This document shows, piece after piece, positions 1 through 12,563 of a DNA stretch of 12,563 nt. The notes under the pieces are model-generated. The model was not told the DNA's origin, did not search any database, and saw only the letters and a program-made list of their open reading frames with translations. Source of the stretch: Trichonephila clavata (lineage: Eukaryota); assembly GCA_019973975.1 (NCBI GenBank), contig BMAO01019611.1:1-12563 (forward strand), written 5' to 3'. A program made the translations under genes and the position numbers. Numbering within the stretch: the first letter of the stretch is position 1; the number at the start of each line of letters is the position of its first letter.

Positions 1-1095
1 AAAGAAACATGCTTAACAAATTTCAAGTAATGGGTCTAACAATTAAAAACAGGATTTTTTTTCTGTAACTCCTCTTGACCCCTCGCAACCCTCCTTGGGG
101 GTCAATTTTCGTTTTACTCTTTGTTAGAGGAACTCTATTCCATGAAAGGAACATGCCTACCAATTTTCAAGCAGGATGATCAAATAGTTTAAAATGGAAA
201 TATTTATCAATTACGCCTCTTAATCTCCGAAATAAACTTAGTAGTTCATATTCGCGAAACCCATTTTGTAGCGGTTCTCTACTTTACGAAAGGAATCTGC
301 TTATCAAATTTCAAGACTGTACGTCTAATAGTTTAAAAATGGGGATAATTATCTCTAACGCCACTTGAGCCCCGCAACGCCACTTCTGGGTCTGTTTTCA
401 CAAAACCAATTTTGTAGGGGAATTGCACACTATGAAAGGAATCTGCTTAGCAAAATTTGAAGACTGTGCGTCCAATAAATTAAAAATGCAAAAAAAAATA
501 TATCAATAACGCCCCTTGAACCCCGCAACGCGGCCTAGGGTCGATTTTCACAAAACACATTTTGTAGTGTATCTCTATCCTATGAGAGGAATCTGCTTAC
601 CAATTTCAAACTGTGCGTCTAATAGTTTAAAAATAAAAATAATTATTTATATCTGCCCTTAACACCCCTTGGGGGTCAATTCTCCCAAACCTGTTTTGTA
701 GCGGATATTTACTCCATGAAAGAAACATTCCTACCAATTTTCAAGCAGGGAGGTGAAGTAGTTTAAAAACTAAAATATTTATCTAGTACGCCACTAAATC
801 CCCCGCAACGCCATTTAGAGGTCTGTTTTCGCAAAACCTTCTTATAGCTGATCTCTACTCTATAAAAGAAATCTACTTATCAAATATAAAACTGTGCGTC
901 TAATAGTTTAAAAATGGAAATAATTATCTATAACGCCCTTAAGTCCCGCAACGCCACTTGAGGGCAATTTTCACGAAACCCATTTTGTAGCGTATCTCTA
1001 CCCTATGAGAGGAATCTACTTACTAAGTTTCAAGACTGTACGTCTAATAACTTAAAAATCGGAATTTCTAACGCCCCTTAAACCCCGCCCCCGCA
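1..1095. repeat. Satellite-like tandem array (left arm of large palindrome), unit ~143-150 bp, ~7.5 copies, truncated by window start
   Basis: Seen in sequence. The landmarks TATGA(A/G)AGGAAT and CCCCGCAACGCC recur at about 141/288/431/581/715/861/1005 and about 86/376/526/806/947/1083. Neighbouring units are only about 75-85% identical. The array is the mirror image of 2471-3578 on the other strand. Confidence 0.9.
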
Positions 1096-1650
1096 AATAA
1101 TTGCTGCTAATTTGAAATTACAAACAGACACTTCAATTTTATTTATTTGTATAGATATAGATTGGGATTATAATAACTATTGTTTAAATGTGACTAAAAA
1201 TGTAAATAAAAAAAAAAAGGATTAAAACTAACCCTAAAACTTATCAATTTTTTGTTTCTTGCATTGCTTTTTGCTTATGAAGCCTTGATTTATTATTTTT
1301 AAAAGTGCATCCGAAACAGCCGATGCTCTACTTAACTGAACAGTTGAGATAACTATCATAAAAAAAAATTATGGCACGTGTCAGCGTATTATCATGTGCG
1401 CGTAAATTATTATGTCTCATGAAGAGCATCGGTCGCCAGTAACCAAAACAACGACTTCATTAGCTCAGCTTGGCGTTTAATTTGGCGTTCATCTTGGCAT
1501 TCAGTTTCACGTTCACCCGTATAGTTTCCGTTCCCTAAGAATACGGGAATAAAATATAGCCTATGTTACTCCCCGTTAATGTAGCTTTCCATTAGTGAAA
1601 GAATTTTTAAAATCGCACCAGCCGTTTCCGAGATTAGCCGGAACAAACAA

Positions 1651-1672
1651 CAGACAGACAGACAGACAGACA
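1651..1672. repeat. (CAGA)5 microsatellite in core segment B. Its mirror copy at 1913-1942 is interrupted (gtctgtctttctgcctgtctgtctg)
   Basis: Seen in sequence. Confidence 0.9.
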
Positions 1673-1737
1673 AAAATTTTAAAAATTGGTTTTTTTGTTA
1701 TGAGTACCGTATATACTTTTAGTGCATTAAGTAAAAA

Positions 1738-1850
1738 GCTGCTAATTTGAAATTACAAACAGACACTTCAATTTTATTTATTTGTATAGATTATATATAT
1801 TATACAAATAAATAAATTGAAGTGTCTGTTTGTAATTTCAAATTAGCAGC
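1738..1850. repeat. About 113-bp near-perfect hairpin at the palindrome axis (A, 10-bp ttatatatat, A')
   Basis: Reverse-complement symmetry seen in sequence. The only blemish is one T indel (tttt vs ttt). Confidence 0.9.
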
Positions 1851-2470
1851 TTTTTACTTAATGCACTAAAAGTATATACGGTACTCATAACAAAAACCAA
1901 TTTTAAAATTTTTGTCTGTCTTTCTGCCTGTCTGTCTGTTTGTTCCGGCTAATCTCGGAAACGGCTGGTGCGATTTAAAATTCTTTCACTAATGGAAAGC
2001 TACATTAACGGGGGTAACATAGGCTATATTTTATTCCCGTATTCTTACGGGAACGGAAACTATACGGCTGAACGTGAAACTGAATGCCAAGATGAACGCC
2101 AAGCTGAGCTAATGAAGTCGTTGTTTTGGTTACTGGCGACCGATGCTCTTCATGAGACATAATAGTGTTACGCGCACATGATAATACGCTGACATGTGCC
2201 ATAATTTTTTTTTATGATAGTTATCTCACTGTTCAGTTAAGTAGAGCATCGGCTGTTTCGGATGCACTTTTGAAAATAATAAATCAATTCTTCATAAGCA
2301 AAAAGCAATGCAAGAAACAAAAAATTGATAAGTTTTACGGTTAGTTTTAATCCTTTTTTTTTTATTTACATTTTTAGTCACATTTAAACAATAGTTATTA
2401 TAATCCCTATCTATATCTATACAAATAAATAAAATTGAAGTGTCTGTTTGTAATTTCAAATTAGCAGCAA

Positions 2471-3960
2471 TTGTTTGCGGGGGCGGGGGTTTAAGGGGCG
2501 TTAGAAATTCCGATTTTTAAGTTATTAGACGTACAGTCTTGAAACTTAGTAAGTAGATTCCTCTCATAGGGTAGAGATACGCTACAAAATGGGTTTCGTG
2601 AAAATTGCCCTCAAGTGGCGTTGCGGGACTTAAGGGGCATTATAGATAATTATTTTCATTTTTAAACTATTAGACGCACAGTCTTTATATTTGATAAGTA
2701 GATTTCTTTTATAGAGTAGAGATCAGCTATAAGAAGGTTTTGTGAAAACAGACCTCTAAATGGCGTTGCGGGGGATTTAGTGGCATACTAGATAAATATT
2801 TTCGTTTTTAAACTACTTCACCTCTCTGCTTGAAAATTGGTAGGAATGTTTCTTTCATGGAGTAAATATCCGCTACAAAACAGGTTTGGGAAAAATTGAC
2901 CCCCAAGGGGTGTTAAGGGCAGATATAAATAATTATTTCTATTTTTAAACTATTAGACGCACAGTTTGAAATTTGGTAAGCAGATTCCTCTCATAGGATA
3001 GAGATACACTACAAAATGTGTTTTGTGAAAATCGACCCCTAGGCCGCGTTGCGGGGGTTCAAGGGGCGTTATTGATAATTTTTTTTTGCATTTTTAATTT
3101 ATTGGACGCACAGTCTTCAAATTTTGCTAAGCAGATTCCTTTCATAAAGTGCAATTCCCCTACAAAATTGGTTTTGTGAAAACAGACCCAGAAGTGGCGT
3201 TGCGGGGGCTCAAGTGGCATTATAGATAATTATCCCCATTTTTAAACTATTAGACGTACAGTCTTGAAATTTGATAAGCAGATTCCTTTCGTAAAGTAGA
3301 GAACCGCTACAAAATGGGTTTCGCGAATATGAACTACCAAGTTTAATTTCGGGAGATTAAGAGGCGTAATTGATAAATATTTCCATTTTAAACTATTTGA
3401 TCATCCTGCTTGAAAATTGGTAGGCATGTTCCTTTCATGGAATAGAGTTCCTCTAACAAAGAGTAAACGAAAATTGACCCCCAAGAAGGGTTGCGAGGGG
3501 TCAAGAGGAGTTACAGAAAAAAATTCCTGTTTTTAATTGTTAGACCATATACTTGAAATTTGTTAAGCATGTTTCTTTTGTTGAATAGGGATCCACTAAG
3601 AATGTATTTTAAGCAAATCAAGTTCTGCGGGGGGGGGTGCAGGGGTTACTGGGACGTATTGACAAAAAAAATTACTTTTTTCGAGCAACAAGGACTATAA
3701 TAATGAAATTTGGTTTGCATTTTTCTTTTGTTGAGTTGAAATCCGCTAAAAGCGGTTATTTTGGAAAACGGCTCTCAACGGATTACGGGGATATTGATAG
3801 TAAAACTTTTTTTTTTTCTGTTAGATTTAGACTTGAAATTTGGCTTGCATGTTCAATTTACGGTGTAGAGATCCACCGAAAATTGGTTTTGGGGGAATCC
3901 ACTTGGTTTTTGGGTTACGAAAGAGCAAACATCATTCTATGCATCAATTTTAGAGATTTT
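2471..3960. repeat. Satellite-like tandem array (right arm, inverted orientation), about 10 units of ~145 bp, increasingly degenerate toward 3960
   Basis: The landmark GGCGTTGCGGG(G) and its variants recur at about 2621, 2764, 2906 (degenerate), 3048, 3197, 3340 (degenerate), 3485, 3627, 3775 (degenerate) and 3900 (degenerate). Positions 2471-3578 are the reverse complement of 1-1095 at about 97-99% identity. Confidence 0.85.
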
Positions 3961-4088
3961 TAGAAAGCACAAATTAGATGAGTTCTGCCCCTTTTTTTTA
4001 TCAACAGGCGACAGTTACAGGTATAAGTATATTTTTCAATACAATCGAATTCTTAATGCAGGACTTAGATATCAATAATTTATACATA

Positions 4089-4121
4089 TATATAAGCAGT
4101 AAAAATTTATAAAACATCAGG
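4089..4121 (+). promoter_or_regulatory. Possible core promoter upstream of gag: TATATAAG at 4089-4096 and the Inr-like CATCAGG about 25 bp downstream
   Basis: A motif-level reading in an AT-rich context, about 120 bp upstream of the gag ATG. This is weak evidence. Confidence 0.25.
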
Positions 4122-4211
4122 AAATTCCAGCGAAGCGGGCGGGTAACAGCTAGTTATATTATATAGATAACCCCGATCTACGTAACAATTTAGTGTCAGA
4201 AGTGGGATTTT

Positions 4212-4742
4212 ATGCCAATAACAAGAGCGATGGAGGAGCAACTGAAGGCTCTGTTGGAGGGTATCAATGCTTTGAGAAGAGGCCAAGAAGAGCTGAGAAA
4301 TACTTTAGAAAAGAAACTAGCAGCAGTTGAAGAGGAAATGGAAATAAAAAGGATCAAAGAGCAAGTTGAAGAAAGAATTGAAGTGGCTGGAAATTTTAGC
4401 CAGCGAGTAGAAGATCTTGAAAAGAAGCTTCTAGCTTGCGAGAATATGACGAAGGGAATAAAGTTTGTGCCTGTCTCACCAGTATCAGTGAAACTGTCCA
4501 CCTATGACGGAAATACCAACTGGGAGGTGTACAAGATTCAATTTTCGATAATATCGGAAGCCAATGGATGGACTGAACGGGTCAAAGCATTTCAGTTAGC
4601 AGCATCCCTTAGACGAGAAGCCGCTGAAGTACTGCTGACTCTTCCCGACACAGAGCTGTTAAATTTGAACTCCCTCTATAATGCTCTGGATCTTCGGTTC
4701 GGACAGAAATACCCCAAATATACTACGCTCGCCTGCAGTTGA
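4212..4742 (+). pseudogene. gag: Gag N-terminal coiled-coil plus capsid-like domain (W..W..QF......W.E..K...L, ending LDLRFGQK). It is frame-shifted into the next segment
   Basis: The translation shows the retrotransposon Gag capsid signature. It is followed by a TGA, and the next frame continues with the conserved (L)KRRIQKTGENLQEYAFEIKRLANLAF. Confidence 0.75.
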
Positions 4743-5431
4743 AAAGAAGAATCCAGAAAACCGGAGAAAATTTGCAAGAGTATGCCTTCGAAATAAAAAG
4801 GCTCGCCAACTTAGCTTTCTCAGATTTCTCAGCAAATGTGCGAGAAATGGTTTCTCTCGAGTATTTCGTTGACGGACTGAAAGATGAAGAAATGCAGAGA
4901 GCTGTAAGAATGGCACATGTTCAAGATCTAAAATCTGCACTGTTATATGCCCTGAAATTTGAAGCCGCCACTCAAGCCAGTCTCAGGGTTCACCATTCCA
5001 TCCGAGGAGCTAGAGTGCTTGCAGATGAGTCACGTGAATCTCCGTGTGTAAAGGATATTGAGAAATTGATAGATGAAATTCAAGGTTTAATGACTCAACG
5101 TCAAAAACAGAGGAGACGTATCATCACGTGCTGGGAGTGTGGTGAATCAGGGCATATCAGAAGTAACTGCCCCCGAACAAATAAGGAAGATCACTGCACA
5201 AAGTGCTGGGGATGCGGTGGAGCAGGGCATCTGAGAAGTAATTGCCCTCGAGTAAATCAGGAAGATCCTCACCGTGCAAGTGTAATCGAGTCTAAGAAAG
5301 TGTGTGGAAACCGAAAAGGATCAGCAAAGGGGAATGGAGGTGTCCCTTTAGGAAGACAGGAGAACAGTAAACACTGCTCGAGAATCGAAAAGAAATTTGG
5401 CGTAATAGATCCAGTAGACCGCCAAGTATAA
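4739..5431 (+). pseudogene. gag: Gag C-terminal / nucleocapsid with two CCHC zinc knuckles (CWECGESGHIRSNC, CWGCGGAGHLRSNC)
   Basis: Two CX2CX4HX4C motifs are seen in the translation. There is no D(T/S)G protease motif before the integrase module. Confidence 0.8.
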
Positions 5432-5442
5432 CGCCATCGACA

Positions 5443-5925
5443 TTGGAATCGGACCCGTGGAATGATGAGAGCGTCCGAAAACATCAATTGGCTGATCCTG
5501 AAATTAAACCAGTAATAGAATTCAAAGAGTCATCTGATGAAAAGCCCAGTTGGCAATACATAGCCTCTTTCCATCCTACAACGCAGCGTTACTGGGCTCT
5601 TTGGGACTCTCTGCACCTGAGAAATGGTGTTTTATATCGAAAATGGGAGTCTGACGACGGAAAAGCATTCAGATGGCAATTAATACTCCCAAAGACGAGA
5701 ATATCGGCAGTCCTAAACGAACTCCATTGTAGTCCAACTGGTGGTCATTTTGGTGTTATGAAGACCTTACAAAAAGTTCGAGAGCGCTTCTACTGGAACA
5801 ATGTGCGGAGTGACGTTGAGAAATGGTGCCGCACATGTGATCCCTGTGCTGCACTTAAAGGTCCAAAAAACGCACCAGAGGACGACTCCAGCTGTATAAT
5901 GTGGGAGCGCCTTTCGAACGAATAG
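5443..5925 (+). pseudogene. int: Pol region immediately preceding integrase, plus the integrase N-terminal HHCC zinc-binding domain (LNELHCSPTGGHFGVMKTLQKVRERFYWNNVRSDVEKWCRTCDPC)
   Basis: H-x3-H ... C-x2-C pattern. The upstream segment W..W..L.LRNGVLYRK...QLILP is typical of gypsy pol at the RNase H to integrase junction. Confidence 0.8.
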
Positions 5926-6491
5926 CTTTCGACATCTTAGGCCCACTTCCAAGATCATCAGACGGCAACAACAACATCCTGGTTGTCATGGACTACTTCA
6001 CTAAGTGGCCTGAAGCCTATCCTATATCCGACCAAGAGGCCCCGACTGTTGCAGAGGTTCTAGTTCAACACTGGATCTCAAGATACGGAGTTCCTCTACA
6101 ACTGCACTCCGATCAGGGAAGAAACTTTGATTCTGCAGTTTGCAAGAGACTGTGCGAGATACTCGGCATTGACAAAACCCGGACAACAGCTTTACATCCT
6201 CAGTCTGACGGCATGGTAGAGAGGTACAATCGGACCATCCTGAACAGCCTCTCTCTCCTGGTATCCAGTAATCAACAGGACTGGGACCAGAAACTGCCTC
6301 TTTTCCTGCTTGCCTACAGGAGTGCCGTCCACGAGACAACTGGCTATTCCCCATCCCAGATGCTCTTCAGACGTGATCTTCGTTTGCCTTCAGATCTCTT
6401 GTTCAGCCGGCCACCAGATGCTCCATTGGCGCCTGAGGAGTATGTCGAGAAACTCCAGGCACGAATGGAGGAAATGCATCATTTTGGCTAG
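5901..6491 (+). pseudogene. int: Integrase catalytic core (DDE: D in FDILGP, D in HSDQG, E in MVERYN)
   Basis: Retroviral-type integrase core motifs in the translation. The end of this segment overlaps the next frame (frameshift near 6480-6495). Confidence 0.85.
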
Positions 6492-6762
6492 GGAAAGAAT
6501 CAGCATGGCTTCAGAGGAGATGAAGACCCGATACGACGCAAGAGCAACCGGACACGACTTTCACGAAGGCGACAAAGTGTGGTTATGGAATCCGAAACGT
6601 CACAAAGGACCCTCTCCGAAGCTGCAGACCAACTGGGAAGGTCCTTACACAGTCCTAAAAAGACTGAATGACGTTGTGGTTCGGATACAGAAATCACCAC
6701 ACACAAAACCGAAGGTAATACATTATAATAGGCTAGCCCCTTACCTTGGGCAAAGAGAATAA
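6310..6762 (+). pseudogene. int: Integrase C-terminal GPY/F (SH3-like) module (GDKVWLWNP...KLQTNWEGPYTVLKRLNDVVVRIQ). No chromodomain. Stop at 6760-6762
   Basis: GPY/F-type motif in the translation. Only the 3' part of this ORF (from about 6490) is the real reading frame. Confidence 0.75.
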
Positions 6763-7159
6763 GATCCTTAACTTCAGACCATGGTCACTAACTATTTTGT
6801 GAATAATGTAAATTGTGTTTCTCTTTTCTATTCCCTTAGTTTTATTTTAGTGTTGTAATTTATGTTTGTATTTTAAATTTATTTGCTTTTTGCTGTTGAG
6901 TATTTGTTACTTTATACTCGATTATTATGTTAATAGGTTATGTCTGTAAATAGATGCCTCTTACTCAGGGAGTGTACTGCTCGGGACGTGCAGTCTTTGA
7001 GGAGGAGGCAATGTTACGAATTTTGTATAAAATAATGTAAATAATTTGTATTTGGATGTGCAATGCCTTTATATTACTCTATGCTATATTTATTTCATGT
7101 TAAAATTGTAATATTCACAAGCAACGCCGTCCCTTACGTTATAATGGCGATTCAATGGG

Positions 7160-7356
7160 AACTTGGCGAAATATTGGCGATAGAGCCAAGTTGGCATAAT
7201 TTTTGGTGCCCATGTTGGCGAGTTCGGGACCCTCTGAATTCTTCTAGAAATTCGGGAAGAAATCTTCTAATTTCAAGACCTATGATGCAAGTGGATCTTT
7301 CTCGAAAGGTCCGCGAGGCCTATAAATAGAGAGATGCCCGCCGAAAATCAATCAGT
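7160..7356 (+). promoter_or_regulatory. Arthropod-type core promoter: TATAAATA at 7321-7328 and Inr TCAGT at 7352-7356. Upstream is an array of TTGGC(G/A) motifs at 7164, 7175, 7191, 7204, 7215 and an NFI-like palindrome TTGGCgatagaGCCAA at 7175-7190
   Basis: Motifs and spacing seen in sequence. The TATA-to-Inr distance is about 30 bp. No credible ORF lies downstream, so this could be the U3 promoter of an LTR remnant. Confidence 0.45.
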
Positions 7357-8510
7357 CTGGTTTTGACTTGCGATTGGTAGACTTGCCTTGACCGTGATGA
7401 CTAGCGATTATATATAGCTCGGCTGTTCAATAGGACTAGCGGTGCTTGTGAATAATCTTTTACATACGTGTATGTTAGATACTGCTAATTGTGTTTGAGT
7501 GCTATTGAAGGTGCGTGGAACTTTTGAGATTTATTTTGCGAATATTACTGCTGAATCCTGTATTTCAAGGATTAGATTTTCTACAACAAATTCTCATCGC
7601 TCTTAAAGAACTGTCTTGTTCCTTGCGACTAATTTGCATAATATCCTCGAACCCCGATCAACGTAGCAGTATGAAATCTTTAAACTGTAGGATAACTCTA
7701 TTTGCATTGGTCCACCCAATTTTTCTTCTTTTGTCAATTTCTTTTCTTTTTATAAAAAAAAAAACATTTCTGATTGTTTCTTTTTCACTTTGAAGTGAAA
7801 TACCTCCTATTTCTTGAGACATTTTTATATTTGTGAGTGCATTATGAAAGTGTAAAATTTGTGCATTTTTCAAATTCTTTTGGGAAGGAAAATTCAGTTA
7901 TGTACCACAATTCTCAAGCGATAACATGATTATTTCCCAGAATTTCTGAGCGTTGCAAATATTAATGGGTTACATGATCTCTCTCTTGTAACTGTGAAAT
8001 CATGATGCACACATTCTTGGATGAATGTTTAAAAACAAATTTTTAACCTTCTGAGCATAAGCATCCTTTTGCATTACATACTACTTGTATTTCAGCTGAG
8101 ACATGGTTTGTTTTTTTTGTTTTTGAACAAATTACTATTAACCAAGAACATTTTTACTGTCTCTCTACTAAAAGTACAAAGCATTCATAATTAGCATATC
8201 AGCAGCCTAATGCATAACGTTAGAATGCTACAAATTATACGCGTACAGTTTTCCTTAGCATATTTTTATTTGAATGTAATGTAGTGACGTTTTTTATCGC
8301 TTTCAAAATGAATGAATCAGGGGGGAAAAAATGTTTCATGCGTATTTATAAATTAAATATCTGAACTCGTGCTGATTTGGAAACATTCATGACCCCATCA
8401 ATATTTTAAAGCATATAATTATCAATAAAATCACTTGCATGTACCTAAAATCTGAGTAGGAAGCTAAATTCTTTCGATTCTTAACAATTGAAAAACACGA
8501 GTGCTGGTTT

Positions 8511-9039: not shown

Positions 9040-10700
9040 AGCTCAAAGCAATGGAGATTTTGCCTGAACCGGAAGAAGAAAAGGGTACTAAAATGACTGC
9101 AGCGCCCCCATAGTAAGCTTTATGGTCAAACTTGTCCATAGAGTGAGCAGAGTAAAAAAAAATTACATCTGCATGGTTCATCACTTTCCACATTTGTTGA
9201 AGCTCCAGCACGTTTAAAAGTACGGGCATTATCCGATATCACCATGGAACACAAACCTCGTCGAGCAATAAAACGTCGAAAAGGAAGAAGAAATGTGTCA
9301 GTAGTCATATTACCGACCAGCTCTAAATGAACCCTTCTTGTTACTTCACAAGTAATTAACAGTATATATTGTTTGGCATCACTGTTTTGACGAATAATGG
9401 TCCTGCAAAATCAATCCCTACAACTGAAAAGGGGGGGGGGATTCTGTTACGCGGACGTCTAGAAGAGGAGCGATAACTTGATTTCCTGGATTAGAGTTAA
9501 ATCTTTTACAAATAATGCACTTTTTTGGGAGAGACTTTATAGTCTGACGAGCTTTCAAAATCCAGTATTTCTCTCTCACCTGCACCAATGTGTGAGATAC
9601 ACCAGAATGAAATACTCTTTTATGTGACTCCCAAATTAACAATTCAGTTAACGTAGACTTGGAAAGAAGAATAATAGGATGTTTCTCATTCGCTGATAAA
9701 TAAGTAGTTTTTCCTAGTCTTCCTGTGACTCTCAGAACACCGTTGTGATCAAGGATGGGGTTCAAACACAATAACTTGGAATCTTTTTGTAAAGATTTAT
9801 CACTCTTCAAGCAAGTAATTTCCCTGGAGTAAAAATCATTTTGAATTACTTTCACCCAAAATATTTCTGCTTTGGAGAGTTCTTCCCTTTTCGAAGTCTT
9901 TCCTTCTGCGAAAAATATAAGCCGTAACTCTTAGCAGTTTAAGAAAACTACTATATTTGTCTGGATCGACAATTTTCTCGTGAGTTATTGTTAAGTTGAC
10001 AATAAGACTGAATTTCAACTCAACAGTTTCAGAATCTATTGATTCAAATCCTTTTAATTTGGGCCAAAGGTTTTCAGAATCTTTTAAACATTCAGGACCG
10101 TGCCACCATTCTTCGAAATTTATAAGCTCTCTGCTAATTATGCCTTTAGTCAATAAGTCAGCAGGGTTTTGTTTACTACTGCAATGCCTCCAAGATACAG
10201 GGTCTGTGTTTTCTTTAATTTCTGAGATTCTATTGGAAACGAAAGGTATAAATTTGGATCCTGAGCCGTTAATCCAATATGGCACAATCCCCGAGTCACT
10301 CCACAGTATTATTCTTTTAATATCCTTGAAAAATCTCTTAAGATATTTCACTAATCTAGCAGCAATTACAGCACCCATTAATTCTAACCTAGAAAGAGAT
10401 CTTTTTAATACAAATAACGAATCTAGTATTAAAATTGTTATCAGAAATTTTATATCTTAAGTAGGCCACAGCTCCAAAAGATTTAGGTGAAGCATCCGAA
10501 AATACATGTAACTGTAAATCATTTCTATTAATTAAATTTGTGGGGGAATAGTAGTATCGCGGAATCTTTAAATTTTGCAAATGTTCAATTTTTTTACACT
10601 TTTCTATAACCCCTTGTTTTATTTGTTCTTTCATAACCGAATTTTTCCTCTCAAATAATACTTCAAAATGTTTTAATCCGGAAGCAGGCACGCACACGAT
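9040..10700 (-). pseudogene. pol: BEL/Pao-family LTR-retrotransposon pol fragment: RT-RNase H junction (LQLHVFSDASPKSFGAVAYLRY), RNase H (WSDS..VPYWI ... NPADLLTKG), integrase HHCC (HPIILLSKSTLTELLIWESHKRVFHSGV ... CIICKRF) and the start of the integrase core (GIDFAGP ... FIARRGLCSMVISDNARTFK). It is truncated on both sides and frameshifted
   Basis: Motifs read from the minus-strand ORFs 10389-10748, 9836-10378, 9418-9855, 9126-9308 and 9038-9229. One frame break coincides with the C10 homopolymer (plus-strand G10 at 9431-9440). Confidence 0.8.
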
Positions 10701-10732
10701 ACTAACGTTAATGGTCGCGCGGAATGACTGAG

Positions 10733-10746
10733 TCTCTCTCTCTCTC
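10733..10746. repeat. (TC)7 microsatellite at the upstream (protein-N-terminal) truncation point of the BEL/Pao fragment
   Basis: Seen in sequence. Confidence 0.85.
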
Positions 10747-11863
10747 ACACCCCAATCTTTTTTTTAAATTATTTTTACTATACACGATAAAAATCACAAT
10801 TCTAGCAAATAATTTAAGTAAGAGAAAGCATACTTACCTACTTTCAAAGACTTTTCAATTTTTGTTTGATAATTTGAGAAAAAATCCAATAAAACTGAAT
10901 TTAAACGTGCGAGACCTTATTAAAGGACGCAAATCACTGCCACTTTTCGCTAACACTATAGGAACGTCATTTCAATGCATTTTTATTTTCATTTCATGTT
11001 CATCGCTTTTTCTGAGATTTTGTGAAGAAACGTTTGCCACTCCGAAAAAAGAGGGAGATATGTGACAAATACATTAAAGTTCCTCTGAAGATTGTCATAT
11101 AGGTGGATACTGTCAAGGTCATTGGTCAAATTTTAAAATATAAATTTAGACAAAAATTTAATCCCGGGTTTTCGTGATTGGAAAAACACCAGGATCCCGG
11201 GCTGCAAACCCTAACCCAAAGAAAAGTCGTGAATATGGCGAAGTGGATAGCAGTCAGACACAGTAGATCACCGAAAAACTCCTCATATCCTCGAATCTTT
11301 ATATTTTTCTTTTTAACAAAATGAAAAGTCACTTTATGTCATTCACTCTATAAGGATCTACTCCAATTAAATTTCTTTTAAAAGTAGCCCAAATTATAAA
11401 AATATTGAAAGAGTAAAAGGAGACAAATACTGGAGAAGGAGCAGGAGGAGCAGTTTCACTGGGTGGGCTGAGCCTCCCAGTGATTTGATTGGCTGATCCA
11501 TTCAATCCTATCGGTGGGCGTGGAAAATACAGATGGCACGTTCGGAGTGAACGGCATATGTTGTAAGAAACCAGAGAAAAGAAAAACTACGTGAAACAGA
11601 AAAATAATTTAGAAAAAAGTATTTTTATTTTGGAACCATCTTGCTCAATTGCCAGCTAACAGCTATGAATTAGAATAAAAAGGAGTATCGCGAACGGGCG
11701 CCATGTCAGCTCGCGATGAAGGGAGAGTTGATTTACGGGGAATGAAGTCATTTACAAAATGAAAAATAATAAAATGAGATACTGATATAATTAAACAAAA
11801 GAGGTCCCGTGCTACCATCTGGTGGCCGGGGAAAGAGACGGAAGATGATCCAAGCGCAAAATT

Positions 11864-12026: not shown

Positions 12027-12563
12027 TTTTTTTTTAAAGTTCCCATTTGCATTTCTGGTGAATTACACCCTGAGCCGTTTGGCGTAGGGGAAATTCACGA
12101 AATGCTGGTCGAGAAGAGCTCTTGGTCTTTTGAGCGAGGAAGGCACTGGTGGGTCATATGCAGGCTGATTTTGTATAAGTTCATTGGGAATTTGTGGTAT
12201 TTTAACAAAGAAACGTTTTGAAACATTTTGTATGTAAGGAAGAGTGGGTTGCACTTTTAAATCACGGTAAATGACTTCATTCCTAACATACCAGGGAGCA
12301 TTCACTATCTGTCTCAAAATAGAGTTAGAAAGTGTGTGCAGTTTACGGATGTGATACATGCCGGAGGAGCCCCAGATGGGGGAACCGTACAGCATGATCG
12401 GTCTGATGATTGAGTTAAAGAGCAAAACATTGTGCCTGATCGCTAGTTTGCTCTTCTTAGAGAGTAGCTGTTTCAGCATACTATGAACAATGTTCGCCTT
12501 TCAGCGAGCTTGTTCGATATGATGGGCAAAAGTTAATTTTGCGTCTAAAAACAACCCTAGGTA
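12027..12563 (-). mobile_element. 3' end of a jockey-clade non-LTR (LINE) retrotransposon. It holds the RT C-terminal thumb (YLGLFLDAKLTFAHHIEQAR*KANIVHSMLKQLL ... IRPIMLYGSPIWG ... NAPWYVRNEVIYRDL), stop at 12063-12065, a 27-nt 3' UTR and an A9 tail (plus-strand T9 at 12027-12035). It extends beyond the window end and is a pseudogene, with an in-frame stop near 12495
   Basis: Translation of minus-strand ORF 12063-12479 plus my own translation of 12480-12563. APWYVRN and LYGS..WG are hallmark jockey/I-type RT C-terminal motifs. Confidence 0.8.

Follow-up and report, generated by a model that had tools for sequence, protein, structure and literature searches.

A repeat-derived palindrome in spider DNA and its possible origin by local inverted duplication of a putatively Helitron-like element copy

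Fold-back inverted duplications, or palindromes initiated by short inverted repeats, are known from studies of gene amplification and of structural variants. Their axis is spacer-less and located at a short self-complementary sequence, and their arms are identical at birth, including the DNA next to the break; in both respects they resemble the locus described here. Long inverted arms are also found in the foldback transposons FB and Tetris. In Tetris, each arm consists of a TIR flanking domain, tandem repeats of approximately 220 bp, and an inner domain (PMC4079207). For Helitrons, the canonical form starts with TC at the 5' end, terminates with CTRR at the 3' end, and inserts between A and T without a target-site duplication (PMC8969392). 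Satellite-like arrays in the center of the element are common among Helitrons and Helentrons, and arrays that combine a single 3' end with several 5' ends have been described (PMC12628747).

The window analyzed here is a stretch of 12,563 nt of Trichonephila clavata DNA (contig BMAO01019611.1, assembly GCA_019973975.1, forward strand). A sequence-only reading had flagged a core in which a segment B, bracketed by direct repeats A, is present twice head to head, and had taken 1096 and 2470 as the bounds of the symmetry. However, the mirror extends outwards, with positions 1 to 1795 pairing with 3578 to 1796. The flagged core therefore makes up the central 1.4 kb of a palindrome that spans at least 3,578 bp (arms 1–1795 and 1796–3578), and both this larger structure and the tandem array of approximately 146-bp units in its arms had been overlooked. 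The A-B-A / A'-B'-A' core and its head-to-head arrangement are real after small corrections of the coordinates (Table 1). With about even confidence, we regard the flagged region as the apex and adjoining inner domain of a palindrome that is natural, non-coding, and derived from a transposon, and that arose by local inverted duplication of one copy of a possibly Helitron-like repeat.

Table 1. Features of the palindrome and its right flank in the window (u, array unit; a prime marks the mirrored orientation).
Feature	Position	Strand	Description
Left arm of palindrome	1–1795	-	mirrors 3578–1796; cut by window start; inverted pairs I1–I25
Left array copy	1–1092	-	7.3 units: u7' to u1' and a 24-nt partial unit (1069–1092)
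A, outer left copy	1103–1156	+	exact, 54/54
B, left copy	1157–1737 (581 nt)	+	non-coding, no homologue found
A, inner left copy	1738–1791	+	exact, 54/54; minus-strand reading opens with TCTATAC after A
Apex	1789–1800	.	12-nt TA-rich center GATTATATATAT; from DNA fold and arm alignment
A', inner right copy	~1797–1850	-	imperfect
B', right copy	1851–2414 (564 nt)	-	from global arm alignment
A', outer right copy	2415–2468	-	exact reverse complement of A; plus strand opens with TCTATAC after A
Right array copy	2483–3930	+	partial unit, then u1–u10; from nhmmer matches and unit alignment
Terminal domain	3931–4154	+	ends in GGGTAACAGCTAG, followed by T; last 120 nt best conserved
TA-rich junction	4155–4168	.	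TATATTATATAGAT, between repeat terminus and LTR remnant
Ty3/gypsy copy, internally deleted	4169–7670	+	from Pfam, blastn to L001 and L002, LTR ends, integrase homologues

The repeat A is an exact 54-mer (GCTGCTAATTTGAAATTACAAACAGACACTTCAATTTTATTTATTTGTATAGAT) that starts with GCTG and ends with AGAT. Four copies had been claimed, three of which are indeed exact, while the inner right copy is imperfect, with a 1-nt deletion in an AAAA run and differences in the 3 to 4 nt proximal to the axis. The first copy had been put at 1098–1150, which is 5 nt too far left. B' is one 12-nt TTGGCGTTTAAT unit short compared with B. The short inverted repeat (CCCGTAT...ATACGGG) and the TTGGCR run that had been noticed inside B were located at 1516–1547 and 1470–1499, respectively, the latter consisting of three motifs with 12-nt spacing, and an (ACAG)5.8 run occupies 1650–1672. 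From the center outwards, the arm is composed of A-B-A, around ten diverged 146-bp tandem units, and the terminal domain, with a linker of 14 nt between the outer A copy and the array.

The symmetry axis falls between 1794 and 1795 within a self-complementary TA run and is essentially spacer-less; the inner A end is only 3 to 4 nt away. The central 205 nt (1692–1896) form one DNA hairpin with a 12-nt loop and a dG of −101 kcal/mol against −15.6 ± 2.9 kcal/mol for shuffled sequences (z = −29.7), which is far beyond chance. In a global alignment of 1–1795 with 3578–1796, the arms agree at 98.5% of the aligned bases (1743 matches, 26 substitutions with 16 transitions and 10 transversions, and 27 indel events), and 3.6% of the alignment columns differ between the halves. 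The identity is uniform along the arms and shows no gradient. Seven of the 26 substitutions affect CpG sites, which account for 6.2% of the bases (4.3-fold enrichment, binomial p = 8e-4), and five of these seven are changes from CpG to TpG or CpA. One indel corresponds to exactly one 12-nt repeat unit, the (ACAG)n run is also of unequal length, and clustered double substitutions occur among the differences. Indels and substitutions are found at a ratio of approximately 1:1 and most 1-nt indels lie within homopolymers, a pattern that also matches consensus errors of long reads. The unit order is identical in both arms across all 7.3 units visible in both, and the right arm reaches 4154, past the portion that is mirrored inside the window.

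The outer units and the terminal domain belong to a dispersed repeat of Trichonephila clavipes. TRF reported a period of 146 with 69% matches for the left array, and nhmmer placed its unit matches on the minus strand; u8–u10 of the right array lie beyond the part mirrored in the window. That A might be a degenerate array unit was ruled out by the unit HMM. In a comparison sample of 181 kb of T. clavipes DNA from nine loci, one one-armed copy of 1.5 kb was found (L006, T. clavipes BMAU01015471.1). By blastn, window positions 2665–4169 match L006 5975–7459 with 72.6% identity over 1537 bp in a single orientation. Units u7–u10 are reciprocal best matches of the L006 units v6–v9, i.e., the four outermost units are positionally orthologous, while the number and type of units vary on the inner side. 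The terminal domain aligns to L006 7239–7442 and is 86.5% identical over its last 120 nt (4035–4154). Both copies end with GGGTAAC(A/G)GCTAG followed by T and then TA-rich DNA, which at the position equivalent to the 14-nt junction of the window is (TA)12 in L006. The L006 copy reaches less far inwards and carries neither A nor B. As it is the sole other DNA copy recovered, A-B-A may be local DNA and not part of the repeat family. A minus-strand unit relic at L006 5309–5485 does not make this copy two-armed, as it belongs to a different repeat (M), which is also present in L003 without an array after it. An apparent extra apex copy in L009 proved to be an AT-rich chance match.

Further copies are visible through gene models. 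The ORF over u8–u10 matches at least 71 protein clusters, whose common part is only an N-terminal exon of approximately 54 amino acids. These gene models begin within units u8–u9, and their peptides are 28–71% identical to the window ORF. All 20 clusters that were looked up are T. clavipes models; their longest contigs have 20 different lengths, so that they apparently lie on different contigs. The 71 peptide clusters carry no information on the number of arms. The outer arm is part of a high-copy repeat with a 146-bp internal array that is apparently specific to T. clavipes, and no published description of such a repeat was found in the literature.

The core shows no coding or RNA-structure signal. 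B contains no conserved ORF, and the short ORFs in one arm are not retained in the other. Concatenated six-frame translations of A-B-A and u1'–u7' gave no match with E ≤ 1e-3 among 5.8 billion proteins; since the later match of u8–u10 revealed that the array query had missed the part inside gene models, this negative result says little about A-B-A. The secondary structure of B, for which a prediction had been suggested, is no better than that of shuffled sequences (z = 0.01). No Rfam family was found at threshold, and the best of the sub-threshold matches, all generic hairpins, reached 48.9 bits, where the gathering score is 101 (1735–1853). A miRNA or structured-RNA reading was rejected on the basis of the fold of B and the Rfam result, as was a tRNA- or SINE-like origin, since no tRNA was found. 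The sequence-only reading had also proposed a search for solitary A-B-A units or A alone, and neither these nor solitary B were present in the 181 kb of T. clavipes DNA. Within the same sample, nhmmer detected nothing similar to A-B-A, be it an LTR or any other sequence, and B was therefore discarded as an LTR relative, although one weak local similarity and the TTGGCR motif remain. Exact-pattern searches of the metagenome and viral collections returned zero matches for the A core and for the most conserved unit motif; the prokaryote-genome collection likewise gave none for the A core, and a 28-mer conserved in the terminal domain was absent from both the viral and the prokaryote-genome collections. 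These results say little, as the collections probably contain no spider DNA.

With regards to its ends, the repeat resembles a Helitron. When read 5' to 3' in their own arm, three of the four A copies open with TC(TATAC) after an A, the inner right copy having lost the C. The 3' CTAG followed by T is shared by both copies (window 4150–4154, L006 7438–7442), the boundaries being derived from these two copies only. Besides such conserved ends, the locus has in common with Helitron/Helentron elements of the DINE-TR1 and oyster Cg170 type (PMC12628747) a central satellite-like array with units of around 150 bp, an AT-rich insertion context, a layout with two 5' ends and one 3' end and, in the L006 copy only, a subterminal hairpin. 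This hairpin (TACCCA/TGGGTA, 6 bp) is located 9 nt upstream of CTAG (dG −5.3, z = −1.85), whereas it is degenerate in the window copy, where none is stable (dG −1.5, z = +0.8). The 5' end of L006, TC after A, possibly lies at approximately 5926, but the putative 5' ends of the two copies share only TCTATA. Also unlike the known elements, the head-to-head pair corresponds to no described Helitron product, and the small sample of nine loci yielded no RepHel partner that shares its ends; the terminal motifs occur there only in L006, and a Pif1-type helicase remnant in L002 lacks matching ends. Since the end of B has no CTRR terminus, A'-B' is not a complete second element. The assignment to Helitrons is based on short termini that were recognized after several transposon classes had been considered. 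Of the traits of a non-LTR retroposon, a conserved 3' end followed by TA-rich DNA is seen, as is a copy (L006) with a shorter inner side, with no target-site duplication or RT-encoding master element visible.

From this evidence, we infer a fold-back origin of the palindrome, a Helitron-like identity of the repeat, and A as its duplicated 5' end. Each arm would be one copy of the dispersed repeat, which from the center outwards would consist of the 53- to 54-nt terminal segment A', B', a second A', and the linker, followed by around ten old, diverged 146-bp units and the conserved terminal domain of approximately 220 bp with CTAG then T. The starting point was probably one repeat copy adjoining a TA-rich tract. 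Fold-back replication or repair, by a hairpin or a template switch, with its axis in the self-complementary tract would then have generated the inverted copy, and the arms would have drifted later by CpG decay and by slippage in homopolymers, the 12-nt mini-array, and the (ACAG)n run. A would represent the inner (5') end of the repeat, present twice in direct orientation, which resembles Helitron arrays in which several 5' ends go with a single 3' end, and the 113-nt hairpin noted before would be two inner ends face to face. The proximity of the inner A to the axis would follow from this, because the end of A would be the terminus of the copy and the axis its flanking TA tract. The repeat itself is probably a non-autonomous Helitron-like element with an internal tandem array. 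The palindrome would have no dedicated function, and an ssDNA or RNA form of it would fold into a hairpin of approximately 1.8 kb.

An origin by inverted duplication had already been suggested, and it is favored by the spacer-less TA axis and by the identity of the arms to each other (98.5%) compared with that to L006 (72.6%). The companion proposals found no support. A is hardly a recombination site that brackets B, as its inner copies end next to the axis and resemble the terminal segment of the repeat; A-B-A is the inner domain of each palindrome arm and does not behave as a separate unit, with no solitary copy found in the 181 kb or in the protein and public collections searched; and nothing points to a circular intermediate. 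Compared with known fold-back inverted duplications, the arms here are approximately 2 kb each and germline-fixed in a repeat-rich region, the locus is no part of an amplification, and the second junction lies outside the window.

A different explanation, which we consider fairly unlikely, is a genuine foldback transposon of the Drosophila FB or Tetris-like type that moved as a two-armed unit and inserted into the 5' LTR of the neighboring gypsy copy. The latter retains the last ~19 nt of its 5' LTR, gag, integrase, and the 3' LTR (7012–7670). The palindrome adjoins it at 4169, where the ~640-bp 5' part of the LTR (...GCATAAAATCCTCGA) is missing, as would be expected if the right terminus had inserted into the LTR. 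That the array is itself part of the gypsy element was rejected, since two related copies (L001 and L002) have a normal LTR at this position. In terms of a foldback element, the arms would comprise a flanking domain of ~220 bp, outer 146-bp subrepeats, an inner A-B-A domain, and almost no middle, and this layout of three domains fits the description of Tetris, including the small or absent middle domain and the non-coding nature (PMC4079207). The inverted repeats are very long (at least 1783 bp, with 98.5% identity over aligned bases), about ten subrepeats of 146 bp are followed by an outermost domain that is the best conserved part between copies (86.5% over the terminal 120 nt), and inner units vary in number and type while outer units are orthologous. 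Even the one-armed state of L006 is not fatal, since most genomic Tetris copies are fragments or rearranged as well, with variable subrepeat numbers (PMC4079207). However, the only other arm recovered from the 181 kb is single, and both the duplication of A and the end of the inner A at the axis are left unexplained. The termini (TC after A and CTAG before T) belong to no recognizable TIR class, and no transposase partner was found in the sampled loci. The unit of 146 bp also differs from those of Tetris (220 bp) and FB (10–155 bp), and the target-site duplications of 8–10 bp known there have no counterpart to be compared, as the left terminus lies outside the window. No described spider foldback family was found in the literature.

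It is distinctly unlikely that the palindrome is an assembly artefact, in which a foldback long read, with template and complement strands joined into a single read, extended a contig end and the left arm (1–1795) is the reverse complement of the true sequence. Foldback reads reportedly account for 1–4% of genomic Nanopore reads (PMC12870357), the public assembly of T. clavipes was built from Nanopore data with Flye and polished with Pilon, and, as in such artefacts, a near-perfect forward/reverse join has its shorter half at the end of the sequence. Here, the left arm stops exactly at the window start, which is a contig end if the window is the whole contig. The essentially spacer-less axis would fit as well, and 1-nt indels, most of them in homopolymers, account for half of the differences between the arms. 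Against this, the halves also differ by CpG-enriched substitutions, a clean repeat-unit indel, and clustered double substitutions, and after polishing, two copies of a single true locus would be expected to end up identical. The 27 indel events in 1.78 kb amount to several times the frameshift density in the integrase remnant of the neighboring gypsy element (2 per kb). Moreover, no sequencing-adapter remnant was found.

Two separate repeat copies could also have inserted head to head into one TA-rich target, 9 nt apart and with no duplication, but we deem this very unlikely. Both inner ends are at the same position of the element (the start of A'), and the spacer (TTATATATA), the right outer flank, and the L006 flank are all TA-rich; in a passage of PMC12628747 that cites McGurk and Barbash, dimers arising from site preference are reported to be common in Drosophila. 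The arms, however, are far more alike than any other sampled copy, given the identities of 72.6% for the other DNA copy and 71% for the best of the 71 peptide clusters, and local duplication is therefore favored over two insertions. No young subfamily was seen that could supply two near-identical copies, and the unit order common to both arms speaks against independent insertions as well. Hardly credible, finally, is A-B-A as an element of its own, either a miniature LTR-type element or one derived from a circle by recombination at A, that was later duplicated with its surroundings: although 581 nt are bracketed by perfect 54-nt direct repeats, the TTGGCR run resembles the U3 region of the neighboring gypsy LTR, and B has a weak similarity to an LTR-like repeat of L006 (Smith-Waterman score of 23 against 15 ± 1.9 for shuffles, of which 1 in 300 scored as high), the repeats lack TG...CA termini, neither a primer-binding site nor a polypurine tract lies next to A, a short target-site duplication is missing and the palindrome instead extends into the flanks, neither solitary copies nor nhmmer similarity were found in the 181 kb, and the repeat boundary at the palindrome axis is left unexplained.

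The locus is ordinary repeat debris; it is neither a gene nor an RNA, and no recombination cassette either. What had been described as a core architecture turned out to be the apex of a palindrome derived from a repeat, within transposon-rich spider DNA, and the gain lies in its correct classification; nothing here would surprise a specialist in transposable elements. Of practical relevance is the contamination of at least 71 clusters of annotated gene models, in which the repeat contributes a spurious first exon. Provided that the palindrome is real, it offers a clean example of how long inverted repeats, which are foldback-like structures, potential sources of hairpin RNA, and fragile sites, can arise from a one-ended element. 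A bolder interpretation, which we rate as improbable, sees in this locus a foldback-type element that was born in a single step: a Helitron-like repeat that is one-ended, species-specific, and present at no fewer than 70 loci would have undergone a hairpin-primed inverted duplication at its TA-flanked 5' end and thereby become a palindrome with two ends and with long inverted termini that are perfect. If this were true and the locus were transcribed, e.g., from neighboring LTR elements, the resulting 1.8-kb hairpin RNA could be a source of siRNAs against the repeat family.

The mirrored left terminus is expected approximately 0.6 kb to the left of the window start. In this mirrored orientation, as expected for the left arm, the right terminus reads ACTAGCTGTTACCC... 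/ ACTAGCTGTTACCCGCCCGC...

The A-B-A core, in which copies of the repeat A bracket the segments B (left) and B' (right), forms the middle of a palindrome derived from a transposon. When positions 1-1795 were globally aligned with reverse-complemented 1796-3600, position 1 was paired with 3578 and 1795 with 1796; therefore, the palindrome spans 3,578 bp or more, the left arm being truncated where the window begins. In this alignment 1743 bases match and 26 are substituted, 27 indel events account for a further 40 bases, and identity is even along the arm. Outside A-B-A, each arm carries tandem units that recur approximately every 146 bp and are only about 70% alike. Past the mirrored part, the right arm continues with three more degenerate units (u8-u10) and terminates in a non-repeated tail reaching approximately 4154. 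The remainder of the window has no sequence similar to A, B or the units. A self-standing A-B-A unit does not fit, the core being part of this larger palindrome.

The description of the core in the sequence-only reading (A copies, B/B', central hairpin) was correct with two exceptions: its start of the first A copy was offset by 5 nt, and one of the four supposedly perfect copies is slightly damaged. From the central 205 nt, a single DNA hairpin with a 12-nt loop was predicted (dG -101 kcal/mol vs -15.6 +/- 2.9 for shuffles). The proposed folding of B gave no structure beyond shuffles (z = 0.01), B held neither a tRNA nor an Rfam match at threshold, and its short ORFs are broken differently between the two arms. 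Nothing indicates that the feature codes for a protein or acts as an RNA, and no LTR-type ends were found on A-B-A. In the 5' to 3' direction of the arm to which each belongs, three of the four A copies start with A|TCTATAC, the C of which is lost in the inner right copy, and the inner A stops 3-4 nt short of the symmetry axis. We infer that A is the inner terminal segment, present twice. A as a degenerate array unit was ruled out.

Features of the core and of the neighbouring transposon debris in the window
Feature	Position	Strand	Remark
A, outer left, 54-mer GCTGCTAATTTGAAATTACAAACAGACACTTCAATTTTATTTATTTGTATAGAT	1103-1156	+	exact match
B	1157-1737		581 nt
A, inner left, 54-mer	1738-1791	+	exact match
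A, inner right (fourth copy), slightly damaged	~1797-1850	-	imperfect match
B'	1851-2414		564 nt
A, outer right, reverse complement	2415-2468	-	exact match
Ty3/gypsy gag and integrase remnant			remainder of window
3' LTR of Ty3/gypsy copy	7012-7670		intact
BEL/Pao remnant, Peptidase_A17 and integrase zinc-binding domain	9418-10748	-	
138-aa ORF	12063-12479	-	no Pfam match

The arms were then compared with nine loci (181 kb in total) of Trichonephila clavipes assembly GCA_019973935.1, chosen around integrase homologues. At one of the nine, L006 (BMAU01015471.1), positions 5975-7459 (1.5 kb) matched window 2665-4169 at 72.6%. This copy has nine units in a single orientation and the same tail; its four outermost units and those of the window are reciprocal best matches (u7-v6, u8-v7, u9-v8, u10-v9), and the inner units form one homogeneous type. 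The last 120 nt are best conserved (86.5%), and both copies end in GGGTAAC(A/G)GCTAG, followed by T and TA-rich DNA. An ORF across u8-u10 (3637-3963) matched 71 protein clusters in a profile-free search, which have in common only an N-terminal segment of about 54 residues (MDFTEINS...AKNAVNE) and beyond it pass into mutually unrelated sequence, e.g., an SH2 phosphatase, a Tc3-type HTH or a Tf2 polyprotein. All 20 clusters looked up were T. clavipes gene models; their longest contigs had 20 different lengths, so that they apparently lie on different contigs. Given the L006 match and the 71 clusters, the outer arm is a dispersed high-copy repeat, apparently species-specific, which gene predictors often read as a first exon. 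A and B, for which a search for solitary A-B-A or A copies had been suggested, were absent from the 181 kb of T. clavipes DNA. A six-frame protein search gave no match either, a weak negative, nor did public collections of viral, metagenome and prokaryote sequences, where spider DNA is probably not represented.

The MDFTEINS...AKNAVNE exon of at least 71 T. clavipes gene-model clusters (proteins P0121-P0191) corresponds to u8-u9, and L006 carries a splice-donor-like site, GAG|GTATTG, where the models diverge. Gene models starting in u8-u9 are probably annotation artefacts.

Canonical Helitrons insert between A and T and have a 5' TC, a 3' CTRR and a subterminal hairpin (PMC8969392). In Helitron-type elements, conserved ends commonly enclose satellite-like arrays, and Helitron arrays that combine multiple 5' ends with a single 3' end are on record (review PMC12628747). 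Similarly, three A copies begin with A|TC, and the far end of the arm reads ...CTAG|T. The L006 copy has the same 3' end with a 6-bp hairpin 9 nt upstream of CTAG, and may begin with A|TCTATA. However, the window copy no longer has this hairpin, and the 5' ends agree in six bases only. Judged by terminal marks from two copies, a Helitron-like element is conceivable, but we rate it somewhat short of probable. The sampled T. clavipes genome does contain a Pif1-type helicase remnant. It lies at L002 2853-4685, comprises the C-terminal part (UvrD_C_2 and Pif1 2B domains), adjoins a Tc1-like transposase and may be a relic of a Helitron RepHel; its ends do not match those of the studied repeat.

Foldback reads are a known artefact of long reads (PMC12870357), and the T. 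clavipes assembly available publicly was built from Nanopore reads. Such an origin of the palindrome would agree with window position 1 being the end of the left arm, an axis without spacer, and arm differences of which about half are 1-nt indels, mostly in homopolymers. However, 7 of the 26 substitutions fall at CpG sites, which hold 6.2% of bases (p = 8e-4), and five of these seven are CpG to TpG/CpA. Moreover, one indel corresponds precisely to a single 12-nt unit of the TTGGCG mini-array, an (ACAG)n run is unequal between arms, indels between the arms are several times denser than frameshifts in the adjacent integrase remnant, and no adapter remnant was found. We consider a read artefact quite improbable. 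Four C-runs (window 369, 520, 935, 1082), of which three lie inside a unit motif of the CCCCGCAAC type, are each one base longer in the right arm than in the left; this one-directional difference could be a strand-dependent consensus error rather than mutation.

Two independent insertions of an old repeat family are unlikely, since the arms are 98.5% identical at aligned bases, compared with 72.6% for the other DNA copy and 28-71% for the peptide clusters. The axis lies within a self-complementary TA run immediately at the inner end of the copy, which fits a fold-back inverted duplication (by hairpin or template switch) that would have begun in the TA tract flanking the element. Of the earlier ideas on origin, inverted duplication fits, whereas a circular intermediate does not. 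The layout, in which a flanking domain is followed by tandem subrepeats and an inner domain while a middle domain is nearly missing, is that of a foldback transposon such as Tetris (PMC4079207); here, the left terminus and any target-site duplication fall outside the window. The right terminus adjoins a gypsy 5' LTR of which just the last ~19 nt remain; an insertion into this LTR would be consistent with that.

Outside the palindrome and the end of its right arm, the window consists of eukaryotic transposon debris; in all, it brings together four or more transposon families. Its integrase ORF shares 85-90% identity with dozens of T. clavipes proteins, the genome being that of T. clavipes or of a very near relation. 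This ORF belongs to an internally deleted Ty3/gypsy copy (4169-7670), in which integrase directly follows a gag with two CCHC knuckles, and protease, RT and RNase H are missing. The zinc knuckle is doubled by a 75-bp tandem duplication (5128-5267; 1.9 copies, 81% matches). The same deletion form recurs in L001 and L002, while RT and RNase H are encoded in L003 and L005 and RT in L004; multiplication of the deletion derivative therefore seems likely. TTGGCR motifs are clustered in U3 of the gypsy LTR (7163-7220, spaced 11-24 nt), in B (1470-1499, spaced 12 nt), and at L003 5644-5705. LTR and B have motif and periodicity in common without alignable homology, which could reflect a common factor-binding array or coincidence. 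A separate repeat, M (L006 5319-5929; L003 4789-4509 and 3345-3120, minus strand), contains unit-like sequence amounting to about 1.3 copies of the 146-bp unit, opposite in orientation to the neighbouring L006 array. These copies lie directly upstream of an LTR-like start (82% to window LTR 7028-7112), which hints at a relationship between the 146-bp unit and a retrotransposon's 3' region.
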